This document shows positions 4,892 through 64,000 of a DNA stretch of 64,000 nucleotides, piece by piece (position 1 is the stretch's first letter; every line of letters starts with the position of its first letter). This stretch comes from a virus. The position numbers were made by a program, and so were the translations under genes. Location of the stretch: IMG/VR virus record IMGVR_UViG_3300027668_002455, positions 111,850 through 175,849 of that record; one strand, given 5' to 3'. The notes beneath the pieces were generated by a model that was not told the origin of the DNA, made no database searches, and worked only from the letters and a program-made list of their open reading frames with translations.

Positions 4892-6100
4892 ATGGCTGAA
4901 GAATTTGTTAATCCTAAAAATGATAGCGGTGGCGCGGTGATTTCAAAATCACAGGCGCAAACGGCCATGAAGAACTTGCAGGCGGAAGCCACCTCTTTAT
5001 CGCCCACTGCTTTAATAGAATTATTTGAAATAGATTTAAGTGATATACTTAGTCCTGATAAACTAATAGATCGAGAAGAATTTAATGCATTAAATGTATT
5101 TCTGGGAGGCTCGCTAGAAGTGAATATACATAATCCCGAAATAAATTTATTTAGATTTCATAATAACTTAAAATTAATTTCAAGAAATATTTGGTTTCAA
5201 GATAACCTATATAAAGCTATACCCATACAAGCGGATGGCTTTGAAATGAACTCTAATGGTGTAGCCGCTACCCCCAAGCTAAGCTTAAGTGTTAGCACGG
5301 AAAAAAGTCCACCTCAATTTGCTATTTTTAAACATCTTCTTAAAGATCTTAATGATCTAGTGGGCGCTCGGGTAAACCGTATAAGAACTTTTGCAAAGTT
5401 TTTAGATTATAAAAATTGGTATGAATTAAAAGCAGACGGAACTCCCGATCTAAATAAAAGACTATATGAAGATATTCCTAAGAATATTGCTCCAGATGAA
5501 GGCTCTTATTTCCCCCCGGATGTTTTTTATATAGATAGAAAATCACACGAAGATAAATCATCTATCCAATTTGAATTAGCTTCTTTTATTAATTTTGAAG
5601 AGCTTCAAATTCCACAAAGAATTTTTAACGTGACCCGATGTCCATGGACGTACCGGGGACAGGGGTGTACTTACGAGTATTCCAGCATGGTAAGGGCACA
5701 ACGAACTTCAGAGCCATTTCAGATGTTTTACAAGACGATGATACCAACAAACGCTCCTCCTATAGCTACAGAAAATAATGAAACTATTTCAAGCATTGTA
5801 GAGGGATACACCCCCGAAACAACAAATACCCCCGTGCCGTGGGAGCCGGCTCTTAAATATCCCAAAAAAAGCACTGTCTATGTAACCCATAACAAAATAA
5901 ATTATTATTTTGTTTCGTCCGCAGATGTACCCGAAAACACACCACCCCCTGATAAAGATTATTGGGTAGCAGATGTGTGTGCAAAAGATCTGGGGGCATG
6001 TAAGTTAAGGTGGGACAAGAAACTCAACACTGCCCTACAAGGAAGCCCATATGGCGCCGCAATTCCTTTTGGCGGTTTTCCAGCAATTAAGCGTCAGTAA
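4892..6100 (+). CDS. Minor tail protein, lambda gpL-like (tail tip, 4 conserved Cys)
   Basis: IELFEIDL, PIQADGFE, DLVGARVNRIRTFAKFLD, CPWTYRGQGC, DVCAKDLGACKLRW, PFGGFP. Confidence 0.9.
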   Translation: MAEEFVNPKNDSGGAVISKSQAQTAMKNLQAEATSLSPTALIELFEIDLSDILSPDKLIDREEFNALNVFLGGSLEVNIHNPEINLFRFHNNLKLISRNIWFQDNLYKAIPIQADGFEMNSNGVAATPKLSLSVSTEKSPPQFAIFKHLLKDLNDLVGARVNRIRTFAKFLDYKNWYELKADGTPDLNKRLYEDIPKNIAPDEGSYFPPDVFYIDRKSHEDKSSIQFELASFINFEELQIPQRIFNVTRCPWTYRGQGCTYEYSSMVRAQRTSEPFQMFYKTMIPTNAPPIATENNETISSIVEGYTPETTNTPVPWEPALKYPKKSTVYVTHNKINYYFVSSADVPENTPPPDKDYWVADVCAKDLGACKLRWDKKLNTALQGSPYGAAIPFGGFPAIKRQ

Positions 6101-6101
6101 A

Positions 6102-6854
6102 ATGATACTCACAAAAAAAAATAAAGAGAAAATAAAAAAACATGCCCGCGAGGAAAGCCCCCGGGAATGTTGCGGGGTATTAGTGTCTACTAACAAGGGT
6201 ACTGAAGCGCACCCGTGCATTAATACCTCTTCTTTGCCTGAGTCTAATTTTAGAGTTTCTCCACGAGATTATATAAAATTTTCTAATTATGGAAAAATAG
6301 AAGCCATCTATCATTCTCACCCGTCAGGGAAAGGAGGCTTCTCCTTGGGAGATCAACAAAATTATACAGTAAATAAAGAAAGATTTATATTATATAATAT
6401 AGAAAGTGATGAATTTTTTGATTCACTAGAAGAAGGGGCATCTCCTTACTTAGGGAGAGACTTCGAACTTGGAAAAACGGATTGTATAAATATAGTTATA
6501 GACTATTATTTAAATGAACTTAAAATAAAAAGCAACTACGACGAATGTTGGCCCGGACCAAAACACTATATTAAGAAAAACGGTTCCTCCAATGTAAAAA
6601 AAGTTGTTCGTTCAATTGAAAAAGTATGGAGTGTAGGACGTATTAAAAAATCAGAAACTCCGCGCAAACATGATATTATTTTGTATAAGGCTGACGGCAT
6701 AAGGTCGGAAGTAGGGCTGCATTTAGGCGTTTGTATAGGCCACGGAAAAATTATTATTCAACCAGTTGATAAAAAATCATGCCTAATTGATTATGAAGGA
6801 TTTCTAAAGAAAAAAACAATTATGATATTTAGACCAAATTCTGCAAATGAATAA
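6102..6854 (+). CDS. Tail assembly protein, lambda gpK-like (JAB/MPN + NlpC/P60)
   Basis: HAREESPRECCG, YHSHP...S..D, G.TDC, H.GVCIG. Confidence 0.9.
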   Translation: MILTKKNKEKIKKHAREESPRECCGVLVSTNKGTEAHPCINTSSLPESNFRVSPRDYIKFSNYGKIEAIYHSHPSGKGGFSLGDQQNYTVNKERFILYNIESDEFFDSLEEGASPYLGRDFELGKTDCINIVIDYYLNELKIKSNYDECWPGPKHYIKKNGSSNVKKVVRSIEKVWSVGRIKKSETPRKHDIILYKADGIRSEVGLHLGVCIGHGKIIIQPVDKKSCLIDYEGFLKKKTIMIFRPNSANE

Positions 6855-7673: not shown

Positions 7674-10600
7674 ATGGCTAATGCAGAACCCGGAATTATA
7701 GTAGACGGCATTAAGAAAAAATCTATTTCTAATATAGAAACTATTGACTTAATAGCAGAAGGACCCATTGAAGGACCCGTTAAGCAGGAGTACGACTATG
7801 TAGGAACACTGGGGGCAACTGGTTGGGATACGGTAAATGCCCAGCCCGAAAAAAACTTCTTATCCTCTTTATATCTTAATGACACCCCTGTCATGGATGA
7901 GCAGGGTCTTTATAATTTTCAAAACATAGAAGTAGCTATTACAAAAGGTCAACCAAACGGTGGGATTGGAAACGCTCAATACTTCAATGACTGGGACATG
8001 CACGAGGCGGGTGTGGATTATTGGAAAGGTAATTCCCCAGCTTCGTTCAATATTAATGTCAGCCCCGACACTGAGCAAAATCCCGAACAGTATCAAAACT
8101 GTGAACTTACAAAAGTTATTAACCCCAATCCTCGTTCGGTTTCTACCTATCGTCAGAAACAAGCTGTTTTATCTCTGGGGTCCGGGTATCCGGAAAGGTC
8201 GAGCTCCGCTGCATATGGTGAGTACTCTGTAAAAATGCCGCCAAGTGCTGCACTAGTAGTACGTGACCCGGTGCTTGGTGATGACCTTTATAATTTTTGG
8301 CCGCGACAAGGGGGCTTTGTCGCTACGGAGGAAGAAGATTATACTCCTGAGGAGATAATCGAAGCACAAAACAAACAAGCGTTCACGTTTGAAGCGCAGG
8401 TTCAAGGGTCAGACTCAAACGGGCCGCAAGTGTTAGCGGGCAAGGGAAATCCGAATTACCCGGGAGGGTGGGTACTTATGATGGTTCCTAGTAACGAGGC
8501 ACTAGATGATGATGGTAATTTTTATTTTAAAGTTACCTTTATCAACAACAACATATCACTTGACACAGGTCATGTAATGCAATTTGGGGTTTGGTCTCAC
8601 GTTGCGGTGTGCCTCAGTGAAAGAGCAGTTAAAATTTTTATTAACGGTGTTGAGCAGACAGGCGGTGGCAAGAATTATCCCAATATAAAACTTTCTAGCC
8701 CCACAGACCTTTTTCTGGGTAGGCATCCTGACGGCTCAACTAACCCCTTAAGGAATGTATTTTTAGATAATATATGCATGTCAAATAGGGCAAAGTATGC
8801 AACTAATTTTACCCCGGGGAAAGTTGAGCCCAATGATAGTACTCTATTTTTAATAGATGGGGAAGATTGGCGCTTTGAAGGTGAAGTACCAATAATTCCT
8901 CAAGATGATTCTATAGAAATTAATACTATGCTGCGAGGCACCTTAGTTAACGATCAAAGGTTTGTATTACAAAGTAACCAGATTTTAAAAGATCTCAACA
9001 CAGCTGCAAACGCCACGTTTTATGACTTTAGTTGTGTAAATGCTAAATTACTAAAAAATAATACTCCCCAGTATGACACTACGATTACTGATCCCGGTGG
9101 GGGCTCAACACCAAGCATATATTTTGATGGAACCGAAGGTCTTGCAAACGAAGGTACATTACAAAATACAAGTCGAATGGTGGATTCTTTAACTCCGCAT
9201 GCAGAGGTATTTCTTAACCCCAACTACTACAACTATACCACAAATGGTAGTCGTGAGTGGTTATTTGAAACGTGGATTTATCCCGCTTCGATGTCCAATG
9301 GGGATGAACAGTTTGTTGCGGGTCTAATGAGAGGCGATGGAACTTCTGCCCCATGGATGCTAACAACGAAACACGAATCTGGCGCTACTAAAATTTATTG
9401 GTCGTGCGTAGATATTACCGATGAATCTGTCAAGCAGCTTTCAGGATCAATTTCAACGGCAAGCTGGAATCATGTTCAGGTTATATATAATGGTAGTTAT
9501 TGTAGACTTTTTGTGGATGGAATACAGGTAGACACACGTGGAATCATCCCTTCGCACGAAACCCTCAATGAGGATACTCGCTTTTGCATTGCCCGTTCAC
9601 ATCCGAACGTAATAATGGATAGTTTTAAAGGATATATATTCAATGCAAGAATACTGGGAGGCGAGTCCATCGCTCCAGTGGAAACAGGGAACACCTCTGT
9701 TTGGAGGAAGATTACGGCTATGGGTCCGAGTGTGCCAACAGCGGCGTTTACATCCACGACCAACTGCAAACTACTACTCCATTCAAACACTACGGATGGC
9801 TCCACTACGTTCACTGATTCAACTGGTAATTATAGCATAGGCAGATTTGGAAACGCCGTAAATTCAACGACTAAGAAAAAGTTTGGGACATCTTCGATTT
9901 ATTTTGATGGATGGAACGATGGCGGCGAACTCGCGTCATCGCTCTATATAGACACTACTGCGGGACAACTTGGCGTAGGCGTATATACAGTTGAGATGTG
10001 GTTTAACACTAGCAAGTCCGGCCTGCAGTATTTGATATCCAGAAATTCCAGCCAACAATATGGTGGGCTTTGTATCAGTCCAGAGAGTAACTATATACAA
10101 TGGGGCGGGAATTGTACTGGTCCAGTCTTGCATGCGAGCGGTGTGACCATTAATCTAAACACTTGGCACCACGTTGCAGTAGTAAGTAATGGTAAAGGAA
10201 ACAGCGCCCACATCTACTTTGACGGGGTTCAGGTTGGACACACTTCGTCTTGGGATAATTGGGGTTATCCGACTGCATCACACCGGATCACCATTGGCGC
10301 ACAGACTTATAATGGCGCTCGACCTCGTTACCTTTTTGAGGGCTACATAGATGAAATTCGTTGGAGTGACGTACCTCGTTATTCGCCTCAGGAGAATTAT
10401 GCCACATTGAGCTCCACAGACTTCGCAGGTTGCGGCGTGTTGGGCGATGGCAATTTATCCTTTACAGATGCAAGTGGGCACTGTGCAGCGAGGTCGACCC
10501 AAACCATCGCTCCGGGTAAGGGTAAAATCTACTTTGAAGTCCTGTGTATTGACGCTGCCAGTATCTGGTCCAGTCCGCCCGCCATCGGGGTCATGGGTGT

Positions 10601-13600
10601 TGGAAGCCCGATTAGCAGACAACTCGACGCGAGTCCATCAAGATGGGTTCGCGGAAACGGGTACAAATATAGTAATGGTTCTGAGATTGCAGCGGGCTAC
10701 TCCACATGGAGCAATGGCGATATTATTGGGGTAGAGATTGATAGCACCGCAGGAACTTTCAAATTTAGGATTAACAATGGAAGTTGGACTACCGCATTCA
10801 CAGATTTAGGAGACACCACTTGGATACCCACGATAAAAATCGCGGAAACAAGCATTAAGTTGACCGTTAATTTTGGGCAAGATTATTATTTTGCCGGCGG
10901 CAAGCCCAGCGGTCAAGATACCAGCCAGACACAATTTTATTACGCGCCCCCGAGCGATGCAGTAGCACTTAGCTTGCTCACTGTGGGTCAAGCAACGGTC
11001 TCGAGCAGTAGGCCGGGGCAGGTGTTTGCTTTGCAGTCTGATGCGGAAGATGGTACCACGGAGTTTACGGATCTGTCATCTTATCGAAACGCCATAACAG
11101 CTAATGGCTCCGTTGAAAACTCAACCGATGTAAATAACCAAGCGGGAAATCAGGAGAGTAGCGTTTTCTTCAACAAAGCAGCTGGCACATTTCTTTCCTC
11201 AACCGCCGCAAAGGATGGTGCAAATTTTAATAACGACGATTGGACTGTGGAGCTCTGGGTGCGCCCAGATCACGCGCTGGGCAGCACCGCCGAATGCTTT
11301 ATGAGTTGCGGAGGCGGCACGGCTAATTGGAATAGTTCTACTGGACACAGCTGGGCTATCACTAATTATGCCAATAAGATTTATTGGCAGTGGAACACTA
11401 CTGGTTCGGGTTTTGGGGAAATTTATACGTCAAATACTGCTGTGCCGGCAAATGAGTGGACGCACATCGCGATGGTAAATCAGTCAGGAACGAAACGACT
11501 TTATATTGGCGGGGTTCAAAAAGGCGAGGACACTACAGAGAAAACAACAACGTCAATGCCCACTATGCTTTCATTTGGTCAAACCTCTGTGTTAAATGAA
11601 GGACCCTTTGGGGGGTACATTAATAACGCCAGTATCCAGCGCGACTACTGCAAATATCCCGACGGTGCCACCTTCCTTCCCTCCACGGCTCGCTTGGTCG
11701 GATATTGGAGTAGCGGAGCTACATGGATGAATAGGCAATATGGACCCGGTGAAGGGACTAACGGTCAGCCTTACTTTACTCCAAATACCAGCCAGTTTAT
11801 AGGAAATATCACAGTCGCGAACGATGGGGAGCTAGTAATACAAAAAGATTTTATTGGTACAGGTAAGCTGTTAAAAGTAACTCGTCCCGAGGATTCCATA
11901 GAAGTTGAAAGATCGGGGGGCCTTAATGTTCACGTGATTCAGTGGGGGAGTGGCAAACCCTATCCTACATACGGGACTCACTACCCATGGAATGACACCA
12001 TAAACAAAAATCGACCCGGTATAGATGAAAGTACATGGGTTCCGGGCGACTATGGTGACCTTGATGGCACGTCATTTTCGAGCCATCGCGGAAATTATAT
12101 CAGAGGTCATGTCGCCAATACTCCCGTTGTAGAAACTGAACACCTTATCAAAAAGAGATTTTTTGTGCAAAAGGTTCCGCTTAAGGGTGGGGAGAATTAT
12201 ACTATCTCGTGCAGGTCTTATAGGGCTACAAACACATCCCAAGGCAATGCCGGGTTTAAATTTGTTGCGTGGTTGGATTCAGGTAGTGGTCCCTATGCTG
12301 AATCAAGTACTTTTACCCCTATCGCAGAGAAGTTGTCTTCTGTAGATGAATCCCAAAATGCCATGTCTTATACCTTCACTGCCCCGCCGGGTACGATGGA
12401 AAGCTGGATCGGAGTAGAGCTTCTACACGGAAACTCAACTCTATACTTTGATAAAGTGACACTTGAAAGCAGTAAGGGTTTCCCCCTAACTAAAGCCAAA
12501 GCAATTAAGGAAAGATTAAGGGGCCCTACTGTAGATGGAAGCGGAAATCCAACAGGTGATAATTATTCCGTCGACATGTTTGCAAAAAAATATAGAATTG
12601 TAAACAAGCATTGTGTGGGAGCAGAAGTTCACCTTAAAATTGACGCCTTATATAACAGCGTTAAAAGCTCGGGCGACTTGATTGACGCCTCTATAAATAA
12701 TATCGTGGTTAAATTTAGACCACTTATACACAATGGTACCTCAGCTTATAAGGACGCCTATGATCAGCAAATTACCGGAAGGGCAGATGTACCATTTCTG
12801 TGGGTTTTTGATTTAGATTTTAAAGAAGTCATTAGTAGTTTCTCAGCTTCGGATAGAAATAACTTCTATGGATGGGAAATAAAAATTTATAGAACAGAGC
12901 CAGAAGTAACAGTAACGAACATAAAAAAATCTACAACAGTTGATGTGTTAGTAGAAAAATATGATACTGCGGCAGCCTATCCCAATTCCTCAGTCATTAG
13001 GCAGCGCTTTAATGCAGCGTATTTTAATAGCATTCCCAGTAGGTCTGTAGATGTTCGACTTCTTCGGGTAAGAGTTCCGAGTAATTATAATCCAATCAAA
13101 AAAACATACGACGAAAGCCAAGGCCCATGGGATGGCACATGGAAAACCCAAAAATACTGGACTGATAATCCGGCTTGGTGTTTTTTAGATATGATTACCA
13201 ATGACCGATATGGGTTGGGTCGGTATATACCCCTTGATGGTTTTGATAAGTGGACTCTTTATAAAATTGCACAATATTGTGATGTTATTGTCCCAGATGG
13301 TGCGGGGGGCATGGAGCCGCGATTGACCCTTAATACTATAATTACCAGTCGAGAAGATGCATTTAAAGTCATAAATGATATGGCAAGTGTTTTTAGGGGA
13401 CTTCTTTATTACGCTGCAGGACAAATTTACGCAATTCAAGATTCTAAAAAAGATCCGATTTATACTTTTACAAATGCAAACGCACAAGACGGAAACTTTA
13501 CTTACTCTAATAAGAGCCGTAAAGAAAGATATAATGTAGGCATTATAAGGTATAATGATAAAACAAATTTTTATAAGCCCGCAATAGAATATGTAGAAGA

Positions 13601-29733: not shown

Positions 29734-30924
29734 TTAGTGAGCTAGACCACTAATGAATAGTCCGACAGTACTTTGCTTCGGTCCACCAACCTGAGCCGAG
29801 AAGGACAGGGAAACGGATTTGTTTGAACCAATGTCAGAAGTGTACTCTTGACTGTCAAGCTTACATTTCTTCAGTACGTAGCGAGCCATAACATTATCAG
29901 CGTTAGAGGTGCCCGGGGCATTGAGCTTGATGTCAAGATCATATGCGCTATCAGCATCAATAATGTCAGCCAAACTACCAGTCGTAATATCACCAAGGTT
30001 TGCATCTACCGAGCACGTCACGGTCACAGGGAAGGTAATTTCCCGCGCGAACGCGAAGCGTGAACCAAGCTTTTGCAGTGGGTCACGAGCAAGGTCGAAG
30101 GACAAGCTGTAGCTTTGAATCTTAGCGTCACTAAGACTTACACCGGTTAATTCGGTAATCGCAGTCGTTCCACCATTGGGATACCAACTTAACGTAATGT
30201 CGCCCGGACGAAGGGCACTTACACCAGATACGTTATTACTGGCTTCGCCAGAGGCCAACGCATACTTGGTAGCAGTGATCTTAGCGCCATCTGCGGGTGT
30301 AATTGCGGGAATAGCATTACCCGATACACCTTTGTCAAATTGCATATTCAGACCCTCAATACTTACCGAGGCTGTTGGGAAATCACCAACTGCGCCTTCA
30401 GTCGTATACGAGCTAATAAAGCCGTTACCAATACCAATTACACTGGTATTGCTAGTGGTGCTCGGGTCTAAAACATCCGAGTCACCTAAGGCGTCATTAC
30501 CCTCTGGGACTGTTTTAATAAAGTAATTTCTTTCATCCGACTCTTTATTTAGAAATCCAGAGAGAGCAGCAAATACAGCTGTGCTTCCACTGGGCGTCAT
30601 AGAGAAGCCGAGGATGTCTTCGTTCTCTAAAGATCCGAGGATATAAGAAGTGTCCAACGAAACCGTGGGAGACTCCAAAATAACCCGGTCAATAGCAGCT
30701 AGCTCGCCAAACTGATTAACGTCTTGGCGGGTGATGTTGAAACTGTAATTAGCAGTTTGTACTCTTTGAAGTTGTTTAACCTTGCTTCGCCCATCATTGG
30801 TCGTGGTTATGGAATTGACGCCCGTCCACACAGTTGTGGTTGTTTGCTCTAGGTGGAAACCTGTAGAGGGAGAAGGTCCAGCATAAACTGCTTCACTTTG
30901 ATAAATAATTCTATTTCTTGGCAT
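29734..30924 (-). CDS. Major tail tube protein
   Basis: Ser/Thr-rich beta protein between neck genes and chaperones/tape measure, followed by its own terminator. Confidence 0.7.
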   Translation of the reverse strand: MPRNRIIYQSEAVYAGPSPSTGFHLEQTTTTVWTGVNSITTTNDGRSKVKQLQRVQTANYSFNITRQDVNQFGELAAIDRVILESPTVSLDTSYILGSLENEDILGFSMTPSGSTAVFAALSGFLNKESDERNYFIKTVPEGNDALGDSDVLDPSTTSNTSVIGIGNGFISSYTTEGAVGDFPTASVSIEGLNMQFDKGVSGNAIPAITPADGAKITATKYALASGEASNNVSGVSALRPGDITLSWYPNGGTTAITELTGVSLSDAKIQSYSLSFDLARDPLQKLGSRFAFAREITFPVTVTCSVDANLGDITTGSLADIIDADSAYDLDIKLNAPGTSNADNVMARYVLKKCKLDSQEYTSDIGSNKSVSLSFSAQVGGPKQSTVGLFISGLAH

Positions 30925-40377: not shown

Positions 40378-40599
40378 TTAGTCTTCTTCTCTTGGTATAC
40401 CTCCAGCATACCAACCTTCAGGTAGCTTCACTTTATTTTTAGAAAGAACCCATTCTCCGTTTTTTAGTACGTAAACACGAGCCTCAGAATCAGGGCCAAT
40501 TCTTACTAGGTCTGACTGTGTATCCACGAAAACAACCCTAGTTGAACCACACCCAGCTAAAAAGAGTAAACTACTCAGAAGTATTATCATCTTCTTCAT
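40378..40599 (-). CDS. Lipoprotein, o-spanin-like
   Basis: Lipobox LAGC; overlaps the upstream small gene; follows the holin. Confidence 0.55.
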   Translation of the reverse strand: MKKMIILLSSLLFLAGCGSTRVVFVDTQSDLVRIGPDSEARVYVLKNGEWVLSKNKVKLPEGWYAGGIPREED

Positions 40600-53641: not shown

Positions 53642-54402
53642 TAATAATCCACCTCCCCTTTATTTAAAACTTTTTTTACTTTTTCGATTATAGATTTTTT
53701 TATATTTTTAATTTGTTTGTAGCCGGGAATCCTGTTCTTTTCAGAAGTTCTATAACCCATTAGCCGTGCAACCTCTTCTTCGCTTTTATATTCTATGTAG
53801 AGATGTTTGTATACTTTCCACTCTATGGGTTTTAGTATCTCTTCCATTTTTATATGTAATTTTTTGGCAAATTTTTCTATATCAGTGTTATCGGAGTTTC
53901 TTGAAAATACTTCTTGGGGGTGATCTTCTAATGAGACAGGGAGCTTCGCGTCGTGTGCTGATTTTTTTGTTTTTTCCCAATGAGCATAAAGAGGGCATGT
54001 AGAATCTTGATCGGTGTAAATGGAGCAGGAGTTACTAGACTCAGCAGCAGCGCATCGTAAACATGGGCGCGCGTAATTGCCGTAGTTGTTTCTAATGAGG
54101 TTTTTTATTTGATTGGAGATTATCCTATTTATCCATGGGCCCAAGGGTTTGTCGGAATCATATAAATCCCATTTTTTATAAATATGAATCCTAAGAATTT
54201 GTGACACATCCTCAAAATCCATCCACGCCAGAACGGTTAAGTTCCACTTAGGTCTCCGCTTAATTATCTCTGTGTTGATTTGGTCAATTGAGTCTTCAAA
54301 AGAAGGCCCCTTTTTCTTTTTATTTTTTTTTGGTTTTTGTGATTTTTTCGGAGATTTTGTGGAATGGCCGCTCTGGCTATTTTTTGGGCGACCTCTAGGC
54401 AT
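53641..54402 (-). CDS. Phage RNA polymerase sigma factor (sigma70-family regions 2 and 4) with Cys-rich insert
   Basis: DFEDVSQ...YD...L..WINRIISNQIKNLIR; L...EWKVY...SEEEVARLMG...IKNIKKSI. Confidence 0.8.
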   Translation of the reverse strand: MPRGRPKNSQSGHSTKSPKKSQKPKKNKKKKGPSFEDSIDQINTEIIKRRPKWNLTVLAWMDFEDVSQILRIHIYKKWDLYDSDKPLGPWINRIISNQIKNLIRNNYGNYARPCLRCAAAESSNSCSIYTDQDSTCPLYAHWEKTKKSAHDAKLPVSLEDHPQEVFSRNSDNTDIEKFAKKLHIKMEEILKPIEWKVYKHLYIEYKSEEEVARLMGYRTSEKNRIPGYKQIKNIKKSIIEKVKKVLNKGEVDY

Positions 54403-57627: not shown

Positions 57628-57996
57628 TTAATCTCTGCATCGGATGTCATTGCCATCATTATCATCGTACCATCCGATAACGGCTGAGCCATCCGAATCA
57701 CGCACAATCTCCTTGCCATAAGCGTACTCACGCGCTGGCTTGTGTGATGGTGCTTTAGCATCAGCGGTGAACGTGCGGTGGTCTTCTAAGAAGTCTTGCA
57801 CTTCATCCTCGGATGCGTAAAACACATCTTCAAATGCTACCGTGTCACCGTAGCCATCACCAAAGGCATTCTCTAACCATACACCCTCACAGGCTAGGAT
57901 GGTGAGAAGGCGGCAAGGCTCGCCTGTGTTTGCATTGATGTAAATTCTGCCACATTGCAGATCCGTTGCTTTTTTGTTTTGTTCTTTCATAATCAT
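57628..57996 (-). CDS. Small early protein with shared C-terminal module
   Basis: Ends GKEIVRDSDGSAVIGWYDDNDGNDIRCRD, nearly identical to the end of the 60726 protein. Confidence 0.75.
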   Translation of the reverse strand: MIMKEQNKKATDLQCGRIYINANTGEPCRLLTILACEGVWLENAFGDGYGDTVAFEDVFYASEDEVQDFLEDHRTFTADAKAPSHKPAREYAYGKEIVRDSDGSAVIGWYDDNDGNDIRCRD

Positions 57997-58008
57997 TTAA
58001 CTGTGTTA

Positions 58009-58045
58009 AGTATATCACACGAGGTGAGACATCCGCTGTCCTACC
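58009..58045 (-). promoter_or_regulatory. Type A element copy 1: 8-7-8 dyad + extended -10
   Basis: Minus strand GGTAGGAC-N7-GTCTCACC-TCGTGTGATATACT. Confidence 0.8.
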
Positions 58046-58235
58046 TGTTAACTTTCCCAACTTTCTTTACTGTGCGGGTGAATGGCTCACTGCCATCGGA
58101 GAAGCTCCGACGCCAAGCCTTGCCGTCTACGATACGTCGAGCGTGTGCCTCGTCCATCGCTTGGATGAATATCGATCCACCATCGGTGAAGGTTACGTTG
58201 AAAATTCTCTCTGGTTTCTTAGGTGTGTTTATCAT
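58041..58235 (-). CDS. Small early protein, F.V...FI.A..EAHARR family
   Basis: Paralogous to the 61078 protein. Confidence 0.7.
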   Translation of the reverse strand: MINTPKKPERIFNVTFTDGGSIFIQAMDEAHARRIVDGKAWRRSFSDGSEPFTRTVKKVGKVNR

Positions 58236-58261: not shown

Positions 58262-58325
58262 CTCTCACTTTCAATACGAATAGTATACCTGAAAAAAACG
58301 AAAAAGTCAATCACTTTCTTTAAAA
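58262..58325 (-). promoter_or_regulatory. Type B element copy 1: sigma70 promoter + GAAAGTGAGAGA leader
   Basis: TTGACT-17-TATACT; block repeated at 59529, 61032, 61259 and 62849. Confidence 0.85.
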
Positions 58326-58364
58326 ACTATTCACAAAATAAATGGCAATTGTGAATAACTTTTG

Positions 58365-58448
58365 CTTGACAGGGGGCCTCGGCGGGGGGACCCTCGCAGA
58401 TAGTACGTGTACGTACTATCTCAGGCGGCCCGCCCCCGATTATATAAT
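58365..58448. repeat. Type C element copy 1: TTGACA, G-run, palindromic core, C-run
   Basis: ggcgggggg...agatagtacgt-gt-acgtactatct...cccccg. Confidence 0.9.
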
Positions 58449-58472
58449 GCAAGCCTTTTAATAGTAAAAGGT

Positions 58473-58541
58473 TTACCAGTCCATCCCGATGCATACGCCA
58501 AACATACACACCATAATGATAAGTAAAGGATACAATTCCAT
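58473..58541 (-). CDS. 22-aa hydrophobic peptide
   Basis: MELYPLLIIMVCMFGVCIGMDW*; GGAGGT RBS. Confidence 0.6.
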   Translation of the reverse strand: MELYPLLIIMVCMFGVCIGMDW

Positions 58542-58542
58542 A

Positions 58543-58848
58543 CTAGGCTACCTCCTTATATACTGGGCTTGTGCGGTGTCCTTCGCCGTAGGAAGGGCAC
58601 ATCGCTGTGACTTTTTTGTTGCCTGTTTGGGCGAACAGCTTGCCAACCGTATAGTCAACCCAACCGCGAGAGGTTTGCTGCTCACCGATGTACTCAATCG
58701 CATCTTGCTGGGCTGCGTGGAAAGTCAGAGTACCGACCTTGGCGCGAGTGCTGAAGTGAGCGCAAACAGAATCAAATCCGCTGAACTTGTTTGTGTGGCG
58801 AAATCCCTTTGCGTGGATCTCGGTATAATAATGTTGTATGTCTCTCAT
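58543..58848 (-). CDS. Hypothetical early protein
   Basis: ORF MRDIQHYY... tightly packed after the HAD gene. Confidence 0.65.
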   Translation of the reverse strand: MRDIQHYYTEIHAKGFRHTNKFSGFDSVCAHFSTRAKVGTLTFHAAQQDAIEYIGEQQTSRGWVDYTVGKLFAQTGNKKVTAMCPSYGEGHRTSPVYKEVA

Positions 58849-58852
58849 AATC

Positions 58853-59314
58853 TTAATTAAATTCCTTCTGGTCTTCACTTACTAACTCACCCAGTTCACC
58901 CAGTCCATCTATGTTGCGTGGGTCATTGTCTACTAGCTTACGCATCACCCACTTAACGATACGCTGCTTGCGTTCGACTATTCTCTTGCTACTTACCTTT
59001 GCCCAATCGGCTGGCTCGTTAACGTCTACGCCTACAGTGATCACGCGCCCTACATTGAAATTCAATTTCTCAAGTGCCATCCGAATGAACCAAGCACTGT
59101 CATTGCCTCGTGCAGTGAGGATATCAACGTGCTTGCCTGAATCCCTGACCAGCTTGCCTAGTGGGGTGAGATCGCTTTCCTCTAGGTTAAGGATAGCGGC
59201 AGGATTAGTGAAATCAAATAAGCGTTTGGAGTCGCGCATCTCTTTGATGAGTGTGCCGTCTAGGTCAAATAATGGTTGTAAGGTTTCTTCTGTCATATCG
59301 TTTTTAATTATCAT
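58853..59314 (-). CDS. HAD-superfamily phosphatase
   Basis: FDLDGTL (motif I), ILTARG (II), K (III), LVDND (IV). Confidence 0.8.
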   Translation of the reverse strand: MIIKNDMTEETLQPLFDLDGTLIKEMRDSKRLFDFTNPAAILNLEESDLTPLGKLVRDSGKHVDILTARGNDSAWFIRMALEKLNFNVGRVITVGVDVNEPADWAKVSSKRIVERKQRIVKWVMRKLVDNDPRNIDGLGELGELVSEDQKEFN

Positions 59315-59320
59315 ACGTAT

Positions 59321-59357
59321 AGTATATCACACGAGGTGGGACATTTGCCGTCCTACC
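59321..59357 (-). promoter_or_regulatory. Type A element copy 2
   Basis: agtatatcacacga-ggtgggac-atttgcc-gtcctacc. Confidence 0.8.
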
Positions 59358-59359
59358 CT

Positions 59360-59524
59360 CTAACTTTCTTCATCCTCTACAGGGTGGAGGAAAGGGCCAA
59401 GGTGGGCGTTATCCCGTTGCCATTGGCGGTTGCCTTCCCGCACTTGCCGCACGGATTCGTTCCAGCGTTGCACACGGGCATCTGCCTTGCGTTGCTCTTC
59501 TTGTACTTCTTCTCTAGTTCTCAT
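59360..59524 (-). CDS. 54-aa charged helical early protein
   Basis: MRTREEVQEEQRKADARVQRWNESVRQ...; directly after a type B promoter/RBS. Confidence 0.7.
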   Translation of the reverse strand: MRTREEVQEEQRKADARVQRWNESVRQVREGNRQWQRDNAHLGPFLHPVEDEES

Positions 59525-59528
59525 AAGT

Positions 59529-59593
59529 CTCTCACTTTCAATACGGTAAGTATATCACAAACATCCGCGAAAGTAAAGAACTTTCTTTAAAAA
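59529..59593 (-). promoter_or_regulatory. Type B element copy 2
   Basis: TTTACT-17-TATACT with GAAAGTGAGAGA leader. Confidence 0.75.
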
Positions 59594-59630
59594 CTATTAA
59601 CAGGCTGTGAATAACTTTCTGACCTTTACG

Positions 59631-59722
59631 CTTGACAAGCAGGCCGGCGGGGGGACCCTCGCAGATAGTACGTGTACGTACTATCTCGGCGGGTGGGCCC
59701 CCGCCTATAAAAGTACAACTAT
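59631..59722. repeat. Type C element copy 2
   Basis: cttgacaagcaggccggcggggggaccctcgcagatagtacgtgtacgtactatctcggcgggtgggcccccgcctataaa. Confidence 0.9.
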
Positions 59723-59737
59723 TAAATACTAATTTCT

Positions 59738-59836
59738 TTATAATGTTTCTATGTAGATTCCTGCTACCAGTATAATCGCGAAGGATACGATACCGATAAT
59801 AAGAACAAAATAAATATCTCTGTAGTCGTCTTTCAT
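59738..59836 (-). CDS. 32-aa single-TM peptide
   Basis: MKDDYRDIYFVLIIGIVSFAIILVAGIYIETL*. Confidence 0.55.
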   Translation of the reverse strand: MKDDYRDIYFVLIIGIVSFAIILVAGIYIETL

Positions 59837-59837
59837 A

Positions 59838-59906
59838 TCACTTTATACTTAAGTAAAAGGATCCAAACATAAATACAAAAACACTAATAATTAATAATAA
59901 TTCCAT
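59838..59906 (-). CDS. 22-aa hydrophobic peptide
   Basis: MELLLIISVFVFMFGSFYLSIK*; start abuts the upstream stop. Confidence 0.55.
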   Translation of the reverse strand: MELLLIISVFVFMFGSFYLSIK

Positions 59907-60074
59907 TTAGGCAAATTCCCCCGTGCCGTGAACATACCAAACGGGATAAAGCTTCTCGTTGGCATATTGCGGAAAATGCATCTTAAAGTTTTGAAGCGCA
60001 CCCGCCTTGTCAAATCCGCAAGTGTTGAATGTTTGCCCGTTGCGTAAGTTGATAGTAAATTTAAATCCTTTCAT
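59907..60074 (-). CDS. 55-aa early protein
   Basis: MKGFKFTINLRNGQTFNTCGFDKAGALQNFKMHFPQY... Confidence 0.65.
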   Translation of the reverse strand: MKGFKFTINLRNGQTFNTCGFDKAGALQNFKMHFPQYANEKLYPVWYVHGTGEFA

Positions 60075-60078
60075 AATC

Positions 60079-60267
60079 TTAAAAAGTTAAAATGTCAATT
60101 GCCTCAATAAGTTGAAATCCAAAGTCTAAAATCACAGCAACAAATAAAATTGTCACAACGAACTTAATCATTGGCATAAACACTTCATCACGAAATGCTT
60201 GATTGAATGCTTCGTTTATGTCTTGCAATGTCCCGACTATGGGTAGTTTGTTTTTGTTTTTCATCAT
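60079..60267 (-). CDS. Small membrane protein
   Basis: C-terminal TM segment. Confidence 0.6.
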   Translation of the reverse strand: MMKNKNKLPIVGTLQDINEAFNQAFRDEVFMPMIKFVVTILFVAVILDFGFQLIEAIDILTF

Positions 60268-60446
60268 AATTCAATTGGTCTTGCGCCCGTGAGGATGCCT
60301 TTAATGGCGGGTTGCATATGCCCCACAACGTCCAGCCTTGCGAGAGCCTTGGCTTGTGGGGTTGGGTTGTTAGCTGCCCACTCATTCCACAATGGGGATG
60401 ATGGGAGGGGTTTCGGTGCGCCTGTGGCGGTCAGTAGTTTTTTCAT
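60264..60446 (-). CDS. Hypothetical early protein
   Basis: ORF in a packed operon; GGAGG RBS. Confidence 0.6.
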   Translation of the reverse strand: MKKLLTATGAPKPLPSSPLWNEWAANNPTPQAKALARLDVVGHMQPAIKGILTGARPIEL

Positions 60447-60451
60447 AATCT

Positions 60452-60718
60452 TTACGCCTCCGCCGTATCAAATGTGAATGTCTCGCCTTCGTCGCTTGAG
60501 TAAATCTCAAACAGTCGTTTAGTGATGGGGTTCCACACTTGCACAGTTTCAAGGCCCGCGCCTTCACCATCAAATGTGTGCCAATTCATAATATGATATG
60601 TCCCCATTTTAATAGGATGTTTCACCCGCGCATCGGTGCTGCGCCTGTGCAGAGTCACCTTGCCTTGGTTCAAGTCGTTGGGGTTGGTATCTTCGTAGGT
60701 TGCTTCGTACTGTTTCAT
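60452..60718 (-). CDS. Hypothetical early protein
   Basis: Start revised to MKQYEATY. Confidence 0.65.
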   Translation of the reverse strand: MKQYEATYEDTNPNDLNQGKVTLHRRSTDARVKHPIKMGTYHIMNWHTFDGEGAGLETVQVWNPITKRLFEIYSSDEGETFTFDTAEA

Positions 60719-60725
60719 AATCGTT

Positions 60726-61022
60726 TTAATCTCTGCAACGAATATCGTTGCCATTTTCATCATCGTACCATCCGACAACAGCCGAACCATCAGAGTCCCG
60801 CACAACTTCTTTGCCGTGCCAAAACTCGCGAGGTGACCAAGGTTTTTCTACCTTCGCCGCAATCTCTTCAATGGAGGTTACAAATGCACCGTTTGGGAGG
60901 TTGTCCCGCTTGTCGGCGATTAAGGTTGCGAGTTCCAAATTTTCGGTTTGGATCTCATACTCTCCGAATTGACCATAGCGGTCTTCGGTTTCTACTCTGA
61001 ATTTTTTCATTTTGTCTTTCAT
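60726..61022 (-). CDS. Chimeric small early protein
   Basis: N-terminus resembles 61785 (MK.KMK.FRVETE); C-terminus resembles 57628. Confidence 0.75.
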   Translation of the reverse strand: MKDKMKKFRVETEDRYGQFGEYEIQTENLELATLIADKRDNLPNGAFVTSIEEIAAKVEKPWSPREFWHGKEVVRDSDGSAVVGWYDDENGNDIRCRD

Positions 61023-61031
61023 AATCTTGTT

Positions 61032-61095
61032 TCTCTCACTCTCAATACGTAAAGTATACCTGAAATTCTTTAAAAAGTCAAGCACTTTCTTTAAC
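61032..61095 (-). promoter_or_regulatory. Type B element copy 3
   Basis: TTGACT-17-TATACT; the TGA stop of the upstream gene lies inside the -35. Confidence 0.85.
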
Positions 61096-61248
61096 TTTTT
61101 CTGTGGGCAATACCCACAGCACCTTACCAAGGGCCAATGCCCGACCCATACCCACCGCAACGCGGCGAGCGTGTGCCTCATTCTGGGCGTTGATAAAAGT
61201 GGTTTCGCCGTAGGCCCAACTAACTTCGAATGTTTGTTCTTTTTTCAT
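61078..61248 (-). CDS. Small early protein, EAHARR family
   Basis: TFEVSWAYGETTFINAQNEAHARR. Confidence 0.7.
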   Translation of the reverse strand: MKKEQTFEVSWAYGETTFINAQNEAHARRVAVGMGRALALGKVLWVLPTEKVKESA

Positions 61249-61258
61249 AATCTTTAAT

Positions 61259-61323
61259 CTCTCACTTTCGATACGTAAAGTATACCTGAAAATTCTGGAA
61301 AAGTCAATCACTTTCTTTAAAAA
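61259..61323 (-). promoter_or_regulatory. Type B element copy 4
   Basis: TTGACT-17-TATACT with GAAAGTGAGAGA leader. Confidence 0.85.
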
Positions 61324-61360
61324 GTATTAACAAAAAAGTTGCAAATGTTGATAAAAAAGA

Positions 61361-61461
61361 CTTGACAAGCAGGCCGGCGGGGGGGGCCCGTGCAGATAGT
61401 ACGTGTACGTACTATCTCGAGAGGTGGGCCCCCGCCTATAAAAAGGCAAGTATTAAATACT
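61361..61461. repeat. Type C element copy 3
   Basis: Near-identical to copy 2, including the trailing gtattaaatac. Confidence 0.9.
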
Positions 61462-61470
61462 AGTTTTTTT

Positions 61471-61542
61471 CTAGTCGCTCCAAATATAATCGTCGGCGTT
61501 CCAACCTAGTATAATAATCGCGATAATAAATATAATAATCAT
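61471..61542 (-). CDS. 23-aa hydrophobic peptide
   Basis: MIIIFIIAIIILGWNADDYIWSD*; GGAAAGG RBS. Confidence 0.55.
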   Translation of the reverse strand: MIIIFIIAIIILGWNADDYIWSD

Positions 61543-61543
61543 T

Positions 61544-61771
61544 TTACCTTTCCATACTTTCTTCGTAGGTAAGCACTCGCGTGCCTTGGCTACCGATAAT
61601 TTTCGAACGGTCAACGTAAACGTCAATCTCGTTTTCTGTTAGCTCTAACTCTTCACCGTCTTGATCGATCACGATCACGGTGTCAAATTCTGTGATTTCG
61701 TCAACTATCATCAGTTGCATTCCTACGCGAACTTCGTCGCCTACTTTTACTTGTTGGTTTTCTATTGTCAT
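61544..61771 (-). CDS. Small SH3/KOW-like beta protein
   Basis: VKVGDEVRVG...VDEI...VIVIDQDGEE. Confidence 0.6.
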   Translation of the reverse strand: MTIENQQVKVGDEVRVGMQLMIVDEITEFDTVIVIDQDGEELELTENEIDVYVDRSKIIGSQGTRVLTYEESMER

Positions 61772-61784
61772 AATCTTAAATCTC

Positions 61785-62075
61785 TTACATTTCCGAATAG
61801 GTTCCATCGTAGCAGCTTGGCTCATAAGTCTCTGGCTGCGCGTCATACCAAAACTCTTCGGCGGTGGGCATCATATCGGAAAAGTCATCCTCGATTTTTT
61901 GAGTGCTCTCCTGCACTTCGGATATCTCTTTAACGTCCACCACCATTACGTGGGGCTGTTGTTCGGCGATTGCGTTAGCAACTTCCCAGCTCTCGGCTTG
62001 GATGTCGTAAGCATTCTTGCTTACTGAATAATACGATTCAGTTTCGACTCGGAATGTTTTCATTTTGTTTTTCAT
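61785..62075 (-). CDS. Small acidic early protein
   Basis: MKNKMKTFRVETE...IQAESWEVANAIA; acidic tail. Confidence 0.7.
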   Translation of the reverse strand: MKNKMKTFRVETESYYSVSKNAYDIQAESWEVANAIAEQQPHVMVVDVKEISEVQESTQKIEDDFSDMMPTAEEFWYDAQPETYEPSCYDGTYSEM

Positions 62076-62090
62076 ATTGTCTATGCTATA

Positions 62091-62127
62091 AGTATATCAC
62101 ACGAGGTGGGACATCCGTAGTCCTACC
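62091..62127 (-). promoter_or_regulatory. Type A element copy 3
   Basis: ggtgggac-atccgta-gtcctacc. Confidence 0.8.
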
Positions 62128-62350
62128 TGCATCTTTCTTCATCTTTTTCTCTGTTCAATTGTTGCTCCTCCTCATCGGTGAAAAGCTTGCCTCTCTCAAT
62201 GGACTGGATCTCCATGCCTTTCATGCCTTTGCCAAAGCTCCTGCCAAAGAACTCTCTGCGCACTTGCGCGAATGATGCTGCGGTTGCACCCCAACGGGTT
62301 CCGTTGGTGGTGGTTACGATGAAATCTTGTTTGTTGTTTTCTTTATTCAT
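62123..62350 (-). CDS. Small early protein
   Basis: ORF bounded by two type A elements. Confidence 0.7.
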   Translation of the reverse strand: MNKENNKQDFIVTTTNGTRWGATAASFAQVRREFFGRSFGKGMKGMEIQSIERGKLFTDEEEQQLNREKDEERCR

Positions 62351-62359
62351 TATGCTTAT

Positions 62360-62396
62360 AGTATATCATAGGAGGTGGGACATCCGTAGTCCTACC
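62360..62396 (-). promoter_or_regulatory. Type A element copy 4
   Basis: agtatatcatagga-ggtgggac-atccgta-gtcctacc. Confidence 0.8.
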
Positions 62397-62622
62397 CTAA
62401 AACCTTTTCAATAAACTTTTCACCCACGCATTCAACGTGAAACTGGTTCCTTGGCATCCAGCCAAGCCACTTGCCCGACCTTAAAAGCCACTGCGCACCG
62501 TGCATGCTTTCCGCTTCTTTTGTGAACACCGGCCCGCGCTCACTGATGCGGTTCTTGGTGCGTTTGCATGCCCTGCTTGTCGGGCTTATCATTATCGTTC
62601 TCATGTCTGTTTCAATCATCAT
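62392..62622 (-). CDS. Small basic early protein
   Basis: Start revised to the ATG 6 nt after the -10 hexamer. Confidence 0.7.
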   Translation of the reverse strand: MMIETDMRTIMISPTSRACKRTKNRISERGPVFTKEAESMHGAQWLLRSGKWLGWMPRNQFHVECVGEKFIEKVLG

Positions 62623-62628
62623 GCGTCT

Positions 62629-62665
62629 AGTATACCACGCGAGGTGGGACATTTGCAGTCCTACC
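62629..62665 (-). promoter_or_regulatory. Type A element copy 5
   Basis: agtataccacgcga-ggtgggac-atttgca-gtcctacc. Confidence 0.8.
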
Positions 62666-62840
62666 CTTTAATTTCTTTTACTCGGATGCTACCGAGTCGG
62701 GCAACGTCAGGGAAAAGCTTTGCAGCTATCTTAAAAGCGGCTCGCAAGTCAAATGCTTGGATGGTTTCGGTTTGCTTGCAAGCGGGACGGCTAGGGTCTA
62801 CTTGCGTTACTAGGGTTAGTTCGAATAATTTGTCTTTCAT
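62661..62840 (-). CDS. Small early protein
   Basis: MKDKLFELTL...IQAFDLRAAFKIA. Confidence 0.7.
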   Translation of the reverse strand: MKDKLFELTLVTQVDPSRPACKQTETIQAFDLRAAFKIAAKLFPDVARLGSIRVKEIKG

Positions 62841-62848
62841 AATCTTTT

Positions 62849-62902
62849 CTCTCTTACTTTCAATACGTAAAGTATACAGGAAAAATCGGGAAAAGTCGAT
62901 AA
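62849..62902 (-). promoter_or_regulatory. Type B element copy 5
   Basis: TCGACT-17-TATACT with GAAAGTAAGAGAGA leader. Confidence 0.75.
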
Positions 62903-62941
62903 CCAACTGTGTCATAAAAAAGAAAGTTTTTGCATTTTGTT

Positions 62942-63019
62942 GTTGACAAACGTGCCGGCGGGGGGGGCCCGCCGGATAGTACGTGTACGTACTATATGGA
63001 AAGCTTGCTATTAAATAGC
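62942..63019. repeat. Type C element copy 4 (right C-rich arm absent)
   Basis: gttgaca...ggcgggggggg...gatagtacgtgtacgtactat...gctattaaatagc. Confidence 0.85.
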
Positions 63020-63038
63020 GGCTTTATGATAGTCGTCG

Positions 63039-63191
63039 CTACTCCTCACTAGCTCGCAGCACTAGCTGCTCCCAGTAATCACCATCCGCGCGGTAGCGCG
63101 TAAGGCTGTCGGCCTCAAGCTGGGCCTCGATGTCGGGGGTGATAGCCTCCTCGCAGGAGACTTGGATCATATCGTGTAGGTCGTTCATCAT
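63039..63191 (-). CDS. 50-aa acidic early protein
   Basis: MMNDLHDMIQVSCEEAITPDIEAQLEADSL... Confidence 0.6.
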   Translation of the reverse strand: MMNDLHDMIQVSCEEAITPDIEAQLEADSLTRYRADGDYWEQLVLRASEE

Positions 63192-63210
63192 AATTTAATT
63201 TCTGTGATTG

Positions 63211-63426
63211 CTATCGGTACATTTCATTGACTTCCCAAGCGCGTTCCAGCTTGGCGTAATCGGTTTCAGTTGTGCCTCGCCCCTCTCCGTGCTGGAGTTC
63301 ACGAAATGCTACCTGTGCATCGCGCAGGGTTGCTTCGCCACAGGCGAGAAAGAGATGTTTTGCCGTGGAGTTTGTACGGCCCTCAGAGGGATTTTGATTT
63401 TTCTTCATATGTTCGTCGTTCATCAT
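63211..63426 (-). CDS. Small early protein
   Basis: TATAAT lies 6 nt before the ATG. Confidence 0.65.
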   Translation of the reverse strand: MMNDEHMKKNQNPSEGRTNSTAKHLFLACGEATLRDAQVAFRELQHGEGRGTTETDYAKLERAWEVNEMYR

Positions 63427-63471
63427 TTAAAAATTATATCAGATTGGTTGAAAGTTACAAGGAAAAGTTAT

Positions 63472-63708
63472 TCACACACCCTTCTCATAGATAGGGCCAT
63501 TATCCGACCAGCAGTCGGCGTGAACCTCCTCCACATAAGCCTCAAACTTGGCACGGTCAAACCGTGGGTGAGTTTGCTCAAAAAGGATGGCGTACGCTTG
63601 CGCGGTTCCTTCCCTGTTTCCCTTGTCATCGACTTGACCGATAATCTCGGCGATGAGGGTGAAGTGTTTGCGGGTGAGGTTTAGGGATTGCGCTTCGTTA
63701 ATTAACAT
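63472..63708 (-). CDS. Small early protein, T(K/R)xHF...PRFD family, copy 2
   Basis: LTRKHFTLIA...FEQTHPRFDRAKF. Confidence 0.75.
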   Translation of the reverse strand: MLINEAQSLNLTRKHFTLIAEIIGQVDDKGNREGTAQAYAILFEQTHPRFDRAKFEAYVEEVHADCWSDNGPIYEKGV

Positions 63709-63784
63709 GAAAGAAGTATAACAGAATGGCGAAAGATTGCAACAATTAAATTCACGAAGTTATTCACAGGCTGGGCATAAAAAA

Positions 63785-63910
63785 GCTTGACAAACAGGCG
63801 CGGCGGGGGGGCCGGCCAGATAGTACGTGTACGTATGATATTGTACGTATACGTATTGTACGTGTACGTATGACATTGTACGTATACGTATTGTACGCGT
63901 ACGTATGATA
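63785..63910. repeat. Type C element copy 5, expanding into five tandem GTACG(T/C)(G/A)TACGTA cores
   Basis: 35-bp higher-order unit gtacgtgtacgtatga(t/c)att-gtacgtatacgtatt repeated about 2.5 times. Confidence 0.9.
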
Positions 63911-63925
63911 TATCATTATTTCGCG

Positions 63926-63970
63926 CTTATTTGTTTCTTATTTGTTTCTTATTTGTTTCTTATTTGTTTC
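63926..63970. repeat. 11-bp tandem repeat (cttatttgttt) x4
   Basis: Visible directly. Confidence 0.9.
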
Positions 63971-64000
63971 TTTCTTATTTCGTTATCGGGCGTTTCTTTC

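Follow-up and report, generated by a model that had tools for sequence, protein, structure and literature searches.

The closest described counterparts of the locus analyzed here are the PeSL cassettes of the T4-type phages RB49 and phi1, whose stem-loops, "generally involving GGGG...CCCC", terminated transcription in vivo in a reporter (Arbiol et al. 2010, PMC2839356). Our subject, Element C, is a palindromic element that recurs five times between positions 58,365 and 63,910 of a 64,000-nucleotide stretch of viral DNA (positions 111,850 to 175,849 of IMG/VR virus record IMGVR_UViG_3300027668_002455), which we analyzed as a whole and refer to as the window. Like PeSL cassettes, the Element C copies are repeated intergenic modules among small accessory early genes, each with a strong sigma70-type promoter that has an AT-rich upstream part (here 85-100 bp from each palindrome centre) and with a stem-loop of polyG followed by polyC. 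Both also coincide with crossover points at which gene units are added, deleted or replaced between relatives, as seen here in a chimeric locus (L018) and in mosaic alignments. Element C additionally contains a strictly conserved palindrome of 22-24 bp, a feature absent from descriptions of PeSLs. The PeSL stem-loop lies within the promoter, whereas the polyG/polyC box of Element C is found ~60-100 bp upstream of its forward promoter; instead of sitting at the hexamers of that promoter, the box adjoins a -35 hexamer or sigma54 box that faces the opposite way, 43-55 bp past the forward -35. The phage carrying Element C is long-tailed and unrelated to T4, which makes the two elements analogues rather than homologues. 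In our preferred interpretation, to which we give about an even chance, Element C is the upstream and boundary part of a reusable, PeSL-like control cassette for early genes, and its core is the duplex site of a two-fold symmetric protein.

Other known systems resemble parts of this arrangement. Intrinsic terminators likewise place a GC-rich stem where a transcription unit ends, but Element C has no T-run and none of its five copies was called by a terminator scan; some relatives place a canonical terminator directly before the palindrome. The hairpin promoters of the N4 virion RNA polymerase share a short, conserved, hairpin-forming sequence repeated in the early region in one orientation. 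An N4-like system was nonetheless rejected because the only protein of that size in the window is the tape measure protein (PF10145), the early genes have ordinary sigma70-type promoters, and the arms of the palindrome do not covary. Sigma54 (-24/-12) promoters are matched by TGGCAY-N5-NTGCT boxes in relatives, but these face away from all genes and the window has none. Finally, the operators of MarR-family regulators in bacteria resemble the Element C core, in its perfect form TAGTACGTATACGTACTA, and lie in promoter regions; unlike Element C, they occur singly, in cellular genomes, next to genes for cupins, beta-lactamase-fold proteins or the like.

A conserved palindrome at the borders of early gene units

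An earlier note on this DNA described an invariant core in five copies of one orientation, always preceded by TTGACA, usually followed by a further motif and set in varying surroundings, and each of these descriptions holds. The 17-mer GATAGTACGTGTACGTA occurs five times on the plus strand (at 58399, 59664, 61395, 62975 and 63819), where shuffled sequences predict 0.01 occurrences, and no further copy was found elsewhere within the 64-kb window. A shorter unit, GTACGTRTACGTA, occurs ten times (0 expected), confined to 58403-63905 and absent from the other 58 kb of the window. TTGACA lies ahead of 5/5 copies, 25-27 nt from the 17-mer, and TATTAAATA trails three of the five (Table 1). The core consensus is AGATAGTACG-YRYR-CGTACTATCT.

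Strong sigma70-type promoters were located on the minus strand at 58310, 59577, 61081, 61307, 62899, 63460 and 63742, and all five copies of Element C fall after the last gene of one small early unit and before the next such promoter. In the direction of transcription, the order is gene stop, small AT-rich palindrome, core palindrome, G/C box, TGTCAA, TTATTCACA/TGTGAATAA boxes, AT-rich stretch, -35 and -10. The distance from the palindrome centre to the first base of the forward -35 is 99.5, 97.5, 98.5, 86.5 and 87.5 bp in copies 1-5; relative to the start points of these strong early promoters, the palindrome is ~120-135 bp upstream. The opposed backward and forward -35 hexamers are separated by 55, 54, 54, 43 and 44 bp, a difference of roughly one turn of the helix between copies 1-3 and copies 4-5. 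Helical phasing in relatives was considered and set aside, a scorable forward promoter being present in only 18 of 65 modules, which are themselves homologous copies. One forward promoter (TTGCAA-16-TATACT, 63715-63742, minus strand) lies just six bases ahead of the ATG at 63708, and the mRNA of the first gene after copy 5 may therefore be leaderless. The second operator-like motif, between the opposed hexamers, has further copies at 59606-59615, 63467-63476 and 63759-63768, and recurs in relatives directly upstream of TTGACA or of the sigma54 box.

Copy 5 differs in that it lacks a second long arm and continues into a tandem palindrome array, whose unit spacing alternates between 20 and 15 bp to give a 35-bp double unit. 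The array is adjoined by phased 11-bp repeats, and the same layout of array and repeats is found in one relative (L079). The number of array units ranges from 1 to 6 among relatives (L018, L047, L064, L079, L110, L115). Together, the array and phased repeats at 63819-63985 could form an origin-like or heavily regulated upstream region.

Table 1. Coordinates of Element C copies and associated features in the window
Feature	Position	Strand	Description
Element C copy 1	58366-58438	+	backward TTGACA 58366-58371; G-run/CCC box; 24-bp palindrome 58398-58421; mirrored GC arm to 58438
Element C copy 2	59632-59705	+	TTGACA 59632-59637; GC box; palindrome 59663-59686; mirrored GC arm; then TATTAAATA at 59720
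Element C copy 3	61362-61437	+	TTGACA 61362-61367; GC box; palindrome 61394-61417; mirrored GC arm; then TATTAAATA at 61451
Element C copy 4	62943-62997	+	TTGACA 62943-62948; self-folding GC box 62955-62974; palindrome 62974-62997 with shorter arms; no right GC arm; then TATTAAATA at 63009
Element C copy 5	63787-63905	+	TTGACA 63787-63792; GC box; first palindrome unit 63819-63835; then 4 more units GTACG(T/C)(G/A)TACGTA
Phased repeats	63916-63985	+	~5 x 11-bp TTATTTGTTTC, adjoining the palindrome array; upstream of the array in gene direction
Second operator-like motif	58328-58359		TTATTCACA...TGTGAATAA(C), between forward -35 and backward TTGACA
Forward promoter by copy 1	58282-58310	-	sigma70-type, TTGACT-17-TATACT
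Sister forward promoters	59549-59577, 61279-61307, 62871-62899, 63715-63742	-	sigma70-type

Outside the window, the exact 17-mer was found in 8 stretches of IMG/VR contigs and at least 114 stretches of metagenome contigs, mostly from marine samples. The core is therefore kept in relatives, a point on which the earlier note had made its own interpretation depend. From these matches 139 unique palindrome contexts were derived. Coding direction is mostly opposite to the 17-mer (93 contexts versus 28, of 156), as it is in the window. A related contig of 67.6 kb holds nine sites, all in its first 11 kb, and one of 40 kb holds all of its sites in the first 6 kb; their CheckV completeness of 43% and 26%, respectively, corresponds to genomes of about 155 kb or more. 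Among 92 contexts classified by architecture, 42 have GC arms on both sides, 28 have a one-sided GC box and 22 are arranged as palindrome-GC-palindrome. A canonical terminator stands just before the palindrome, in gene direction, in 17 of the 92, placing the palindrome in an untranscribed spacer there, which fits a role at the DNA level.

Sequence rather than pairing is conserved

The main context collection was gathered with the exact 17-mer, and two tests relaxed different parts of it. In the flank test, sites gathered by the inner 12-mer alone gave 247 unique contexts, among which Watson-Crick pairs at the mirrored flank positions d1-d8 occurred as expected of independent columns (152 vs 154.5 at d1 and 219 vs 220.1 at d3, observed versus expected; mutual information <=0.074 bits). 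The combinations at d1 (G/C 141, A/C 42, G/T 40, A/T 10) are exactly multiplicative, and each half-site drifts independently from the consensus A(G/T)ATAGTACG without compensation by its partner. In the inner-stem test, sites were gathered by the outer ATAG...CTAT alone; the inner TACG/CGTA was invariant, only the central four bases differed (TGTA, TATA, TGTG or CATA), and the orientation of asymmetric centres was independent of the flanking parts. In a further arm-swap test of 22 non-redundant two-armed contexts, the right arm was exchanged for that of another context. Swapped GC arms reached -35.3 kcal/mol compared with -33.1 for native arms, and the foreign arm was at least equal in 55% of trials. 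Independent half-sites, an invariant inner stem and interchangeable arms together indicate that sequence, not pairing, is conserved. Two half-sites kept to the same consensus, varying independently about a tolerant centre, are what a dimer operator would display, and the compensatory base pairs that mark structured RNAs or structure-specific hairpins were not found among these contexts. The pattern of conservation thus favours a sequence-specific, two-fold symmetric duplex site over an element selected for intrastrand pairing.

The copies can nevertheless fold. In agreement with the nesting of the core in an outer GC stem that had been proposed for copies 1-3, their single-stranded DNA (ssDNA) folds are single, composite, interrupted hairpins with the core at the tip inside the GC arms, at -19.7, -25.4 and -20.7 kcal/mol, respectively (z -2.5 to -4.8). 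Copy 4 instead folds as two adjacent, separate hairpins, one from its GC part and one from its core. No T-run adjoins the stems on either strand in any of the five copies. Canonical terminators (stem plus T7-9) follow several genes of the late region, and the early coding strand has essentially none; the earlier statement that Element C is not a standard intrinsic terminator accordingly stands.

The G/C box and a backward polymerase-docking motif

Ahead of the 17-mer, G occupies positions -15 to -9 and C positions -8 to -6 in a fixed register (72 contexts), and where this G/C box is mirrored on the far side of the palindrome it makes up the "GC clamp". The 24-nt box itself has a mean folding energy of -10.8 kcal/mol, only slightly better than the -8.7 of shuffles. 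Further out, TTGAC is found 25-30 nt (mode 27) upstream of the 17-mer in 72 of 139 contexts, pointing at the palindrome and antisense to the genes. An ordinary sigma70 promoter composed of TTGACA with the first half-site or with a downstream TATAAA was rejected, the spacings of 27 nt, or ~8 nt after notional removal of the hairpin, being unworkable.

In a sister clade (L003, L005, L025, L033, L045, L058, L065), the place of TTGACA is taken by TGGCAY-N5-NTGCT, a textbook sigma54 box. Among the sigma54 boxes of the collected loci, 13/18 have a palindrome 9-28 nt downstream, and those of L045 likewise point away from the genes; the window itself contains no sigma54 box (TGGCAC-N5-TTGCW). In many copies of both TTGACA and the sigma54 box, the predicted start point falls on the first half-site or a few bases ahead of it. 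The occurrence of two unrelated polymerase-docking motifs at one position suggests, from these sequences, that docking toward the palindrome may be the selected feature. In the sigma54-type clade (L045 at 9200-12300, and other loci), repeated TATTTGCA(T/A) motifs also occur between each canonical terminator and the palindrome pair.

Recombination within the element

Aligned against more than 40 collected loci, the 57-64 kb region of the window is a patchwork of segments of 150-2600 bp with 70-99% identity, in differing orders and combinations. In locus L018, sequence matching the left side of window copy 3 runs as far as the G-run and is followed, from the palindrome on, by sequence matching the right side of copy 4, so that the junction falls inside the element; the 1.56 kb that separates copies 3 and 4 in the window, with its five small genes, is missing from L018 at this point. 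Such alignments show that relatives have recombined within Element C. The recombination signal that had been suspected is thereby borne out solely as a shared homology patch with crossovers among relatives; nothing in the data indicates a dedicated recombinase.

Proposed function and alternatives

The palindrome core would most likely be the duplex binding site of a two-fold symmetric, probably phage-encoded, DNA-binding protein, with multiple such units arrayed upstream of the promoter by copy 5. By analogy with the GGGG...CCCC stem-loop of PeSLs, the polyG/polyC box probably attenuates read-through from the upstream unit. A putative backward docking site for host RNA polymerase would face the palindrome, in the form of a perfect -35 hexamer here and of a sigma54 -24/-12 box in the sister clade. 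The same 60-100 bp, recurring at every unit border, also act as homology patches between related phages for the gain, loss and swap of gene units. This phage family keeps its accessory early genes in arrays of small units, and Element C shows where the genomes recombine, which aids the reading of mosaic early regions. Since the same palindrome marks the borders of early units in well over a hundred contigs from many ocean samples, one protein-DNA interaction probably governs early expression in this abundant marine phage group. Textbooks offer no explanation for the exchange of a sigma70 -35 hexamer for a sigma54 box in a single place where both point away from the genes; if functional, it would represent a new mode of host RNA polymerase use by a phage.

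Several points weigh against a protein-bound cassette boundary. No binding protein was identified among the small genes of the window and the gene families of 95 related loci; in particular, no clear helix-turn-helix protein was seen among those small genes or among 97 gene families shared by the related loci, for which parts of genomes were searched. This interpretation does not account for the purpose of the backward -35 hexamer, and no -10 element follows it at 17 bp, where the sequence is G/C-rich. The helical-phase argument depends on five homologous copies. Invariance of the 17-mer is partly a matter of ascertainment. Generic G-run and C-run arms would pair without any covariation. A palindrome conserved by a protein could also fold, so that a hairpin function is possible, though unsupported.

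Two alternatives build on the backward motif. We see some chance, a low one, that Element C is a boundary device in which a symmetric operator is combined with a backward docking site for host RNA polymerase, sigma70 and sigma54 being interchangeable, and in which a parked or activator-gated polymerase, under the control of the palindrome-binding protein, insulates the units or shuts them off by collision or antisense RNA. It is unlikely, too, that the TTGACA or sigma54 box is a promoter that fires toward the palindrome, which would then be an operator or 5' hairpin, and that the resulting short or antisense RNA, or the colliding polymerase, insulates or shuts off the upstream early unit. Such a promoter would account for two different holoenzyme-docking motifs in the same place and orientation whose starts are predicted, in many copies, only a few nt from the first half-site, for the TGTGAATAA boxes just upstream, which recall a regulated divergent promoter pair, and for the small AT-rich hairpins, some with T-runs, that copies 1 and 3 have after the palindrome on that strand. 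It is at odds with the missing -10 and the G/C-rich sequence in its place, with the inward-pointing TTGACA on both sides of the element in several relatives, which would lead to head-on transcription, and with a strand that carries no gene. Moreover, no sigma54-type activator ATPase was found in two partial related genomes, and the possible antisense targets, small hydrophobic genes, precede only 8/81 contexts. A role in the early mRNA, in which the composite hairpin between units would serve for factor-independent attenuation, 3' stabilisation or RNase III-type processing, strikes us as decidedly unlikely. All copies do lie at unit ends in a transcribed orientation, copies 1-3 can form an interrupted helix of ~25 bp, the early coding strand lacks canonical terminators, and the polyG/polyC stem-loops of PeSLs, for which no U-tract has been described, terminate in vivo. 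Compensatory change is nowhere seen, however, the three architectures show that the layout is not kept, Element C has no U-tract, and in the 17 contexts with a preceding terminator the palindrome would rarely be transcribed. Rfam returned only sub-threshold, microRNA-like matches, to the tandem array, and no family match, and the processed structured RNA once proposed is therefore improbable.

The other possibility raised in the earlier note was a protein-recognised cruciform or ssDNA hairpin; as a structural signal, it could serve in nicking, recombination, injection pausing or priming. Its protein-recognised part agrees with the best reading of the data, and its structural part does not: the half-sites are independent, no change is compensated, the arms can be swapped, and only 42 of 92 contexts are two-armed. 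The perfect 11-bp arms within GC clamps in copies 1-3 suit such a signal, as do an alternating purine-pyrimidine core, which favours unusual structures under supercoiling, located upstream of strong promoters, and a RuvB-like motor gene that is common in these early regions. Arms of only 5 bp remain in copy 5 and many relatives, though, the loop of 2-4 bases is constrained in sequence to YRYR, and a half-site conforms to the consensus even when its partner arm is missing; recognition as a structure is therefore very unlikely. Just as little probability is given to the palindrome being the site of an initiator or of a ParB/KorB-like protein, with the array at 63819-63985 acting as an origin or centromere and the single sites being dispersed copies that silence or tune nearby promoters. 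Here the array of 3-6 palindromes at a mean spacing of ~17.5 bp beside phased, A/T-rich 11-bp repeats is suggestive, a gene for a ParB-fold protein with a DGQHR motif is encoded near the array in L079, and palindromes scattered ahead of numerous promoters recall the KorB sites in plasmid RK2. The DGQHR protein has no match to the curated families searched and is not adjacent to most sites, however, the number of array units is unstable among close relatives, and no replication gene was seen beside the array.

Candidate binding proteins

Returning to the preferred interpretation of a duplex site for a symmetric protein, candidate binders were sought among gene families obtained by clustering 1603 open reading frames (ORFs) from the 95 related loci. 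A RuvB-like ATPase is encoded in 15 loci, its gene always ending 360-470 bp before a palindrome. A protein of 311 amino acids (aa) with the ParB-type DGQHR motif, without a match in the curated families searched, is present in 9 related loci and is the one encoded ~0.9 kb from the array in L079. We regard both, loosely, as candidates.

A link to host sites was rejected: across 185,579 bacterial genomes the 18-mer has 28 loci, close to the number expected by chance, and so no overall enrichment. Only the perfect palindrome TAGTACGTATACGTACTA is enriched, with 20 bacterial loci versus ~9 expected, in promoter regions. In 5/20 loci it lies beside MarR-family genes (two loci in Amycolatopsis and one each in Saccharopolyspora, Bradyrhizobium and a Dehalococcoidales genome); other loci have cupin or beta-lactamase-fold genes adjacent. 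A winged-helix dimer can evidently read this sequence, and the bacterial sites are look-alikes rather than a link to the phage. No MarR gene was found in the phage sequences searched, and the match may reflect convergence.

Phage and genomic setting

The window is from a large, uncultured, marine, long-tailed phage. Its ORFs include the tape measure protein of 3667 aa, a protein of 2876 aa with tail-fibre domains, a large terminase and PhoH. The terminase has only ~24% identity to those of large Bacillus and Lactococcus siphophages, and a nucleotide search with 58-64 kb against cultured phages gave no match; the phage is without a close cultured relative. All genes between 16 and 64 kb are on the minus strand. 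The 57-64 kb region holds ~25 small genes, one of which encodes a HAD-type DxDGT motif that confirms the coding strand.

Just upstream of the block of terminase and structural genes, an extracytoplasmic function (ECF)-type sigma factor is encoded at 53644-54402 on the minus strand (Sigma70_r2, 28.5 bits; TIGR02937, 38 bits). Related contigs encode 1-3 sigma factors, with three sigma70-family genes in contig G001. The sequence (G/A)TGTA(A/T)(A/T)T was noticed by eye ~20-35 nt before several late start codons on the minus strand (genes starting at 29736, 30993, 34375, 40380 and 54816; weaker at 40380), and is a possible promoter element for the phage sigma factor. Element C itself was rejected as a promoter for this factor, having no fitting AAC...CGT geometry.

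Tiny hydrophobic ORFs of 22, 32 and 23 aa (58473-58541, 59738-59836 and 61471-61542, minus strand) end the gene units just before copies 1-3; they are conserved in close relatives, and one has a strong ribosome-binding site. A type I toxin-antitoxin arrangement, of a small hydrophobic gene with a convergent antisense RNA, was considered and dismissed: such genes precede copies 1-3, but only 8/81 related contexts, compared with 3 in a control.

A separate repeat family, D2, occurs at 57981-58054, 59293-59366, 62063-62136, 62332-62405 and 62601-62674; here a conserved hairpin, GGGTAGGAC-N7-GTCCCACC, takes the -35 position of a minus-strand promoter of the extended -10 type (TGnTATACT). Its layout is nearer to the classical PeSL than that of Element C, and two D2 copies score as terminator-like on the plus strand. 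Relative L079, whose sequence continues past the right end of the window, carries a manA RNA (RF01745) at 2231-2411 on the plus strand, with a score of 72.6 bits that exceeds the gathering score, and a further structured-looking non-coding stretch at 6100-6290.

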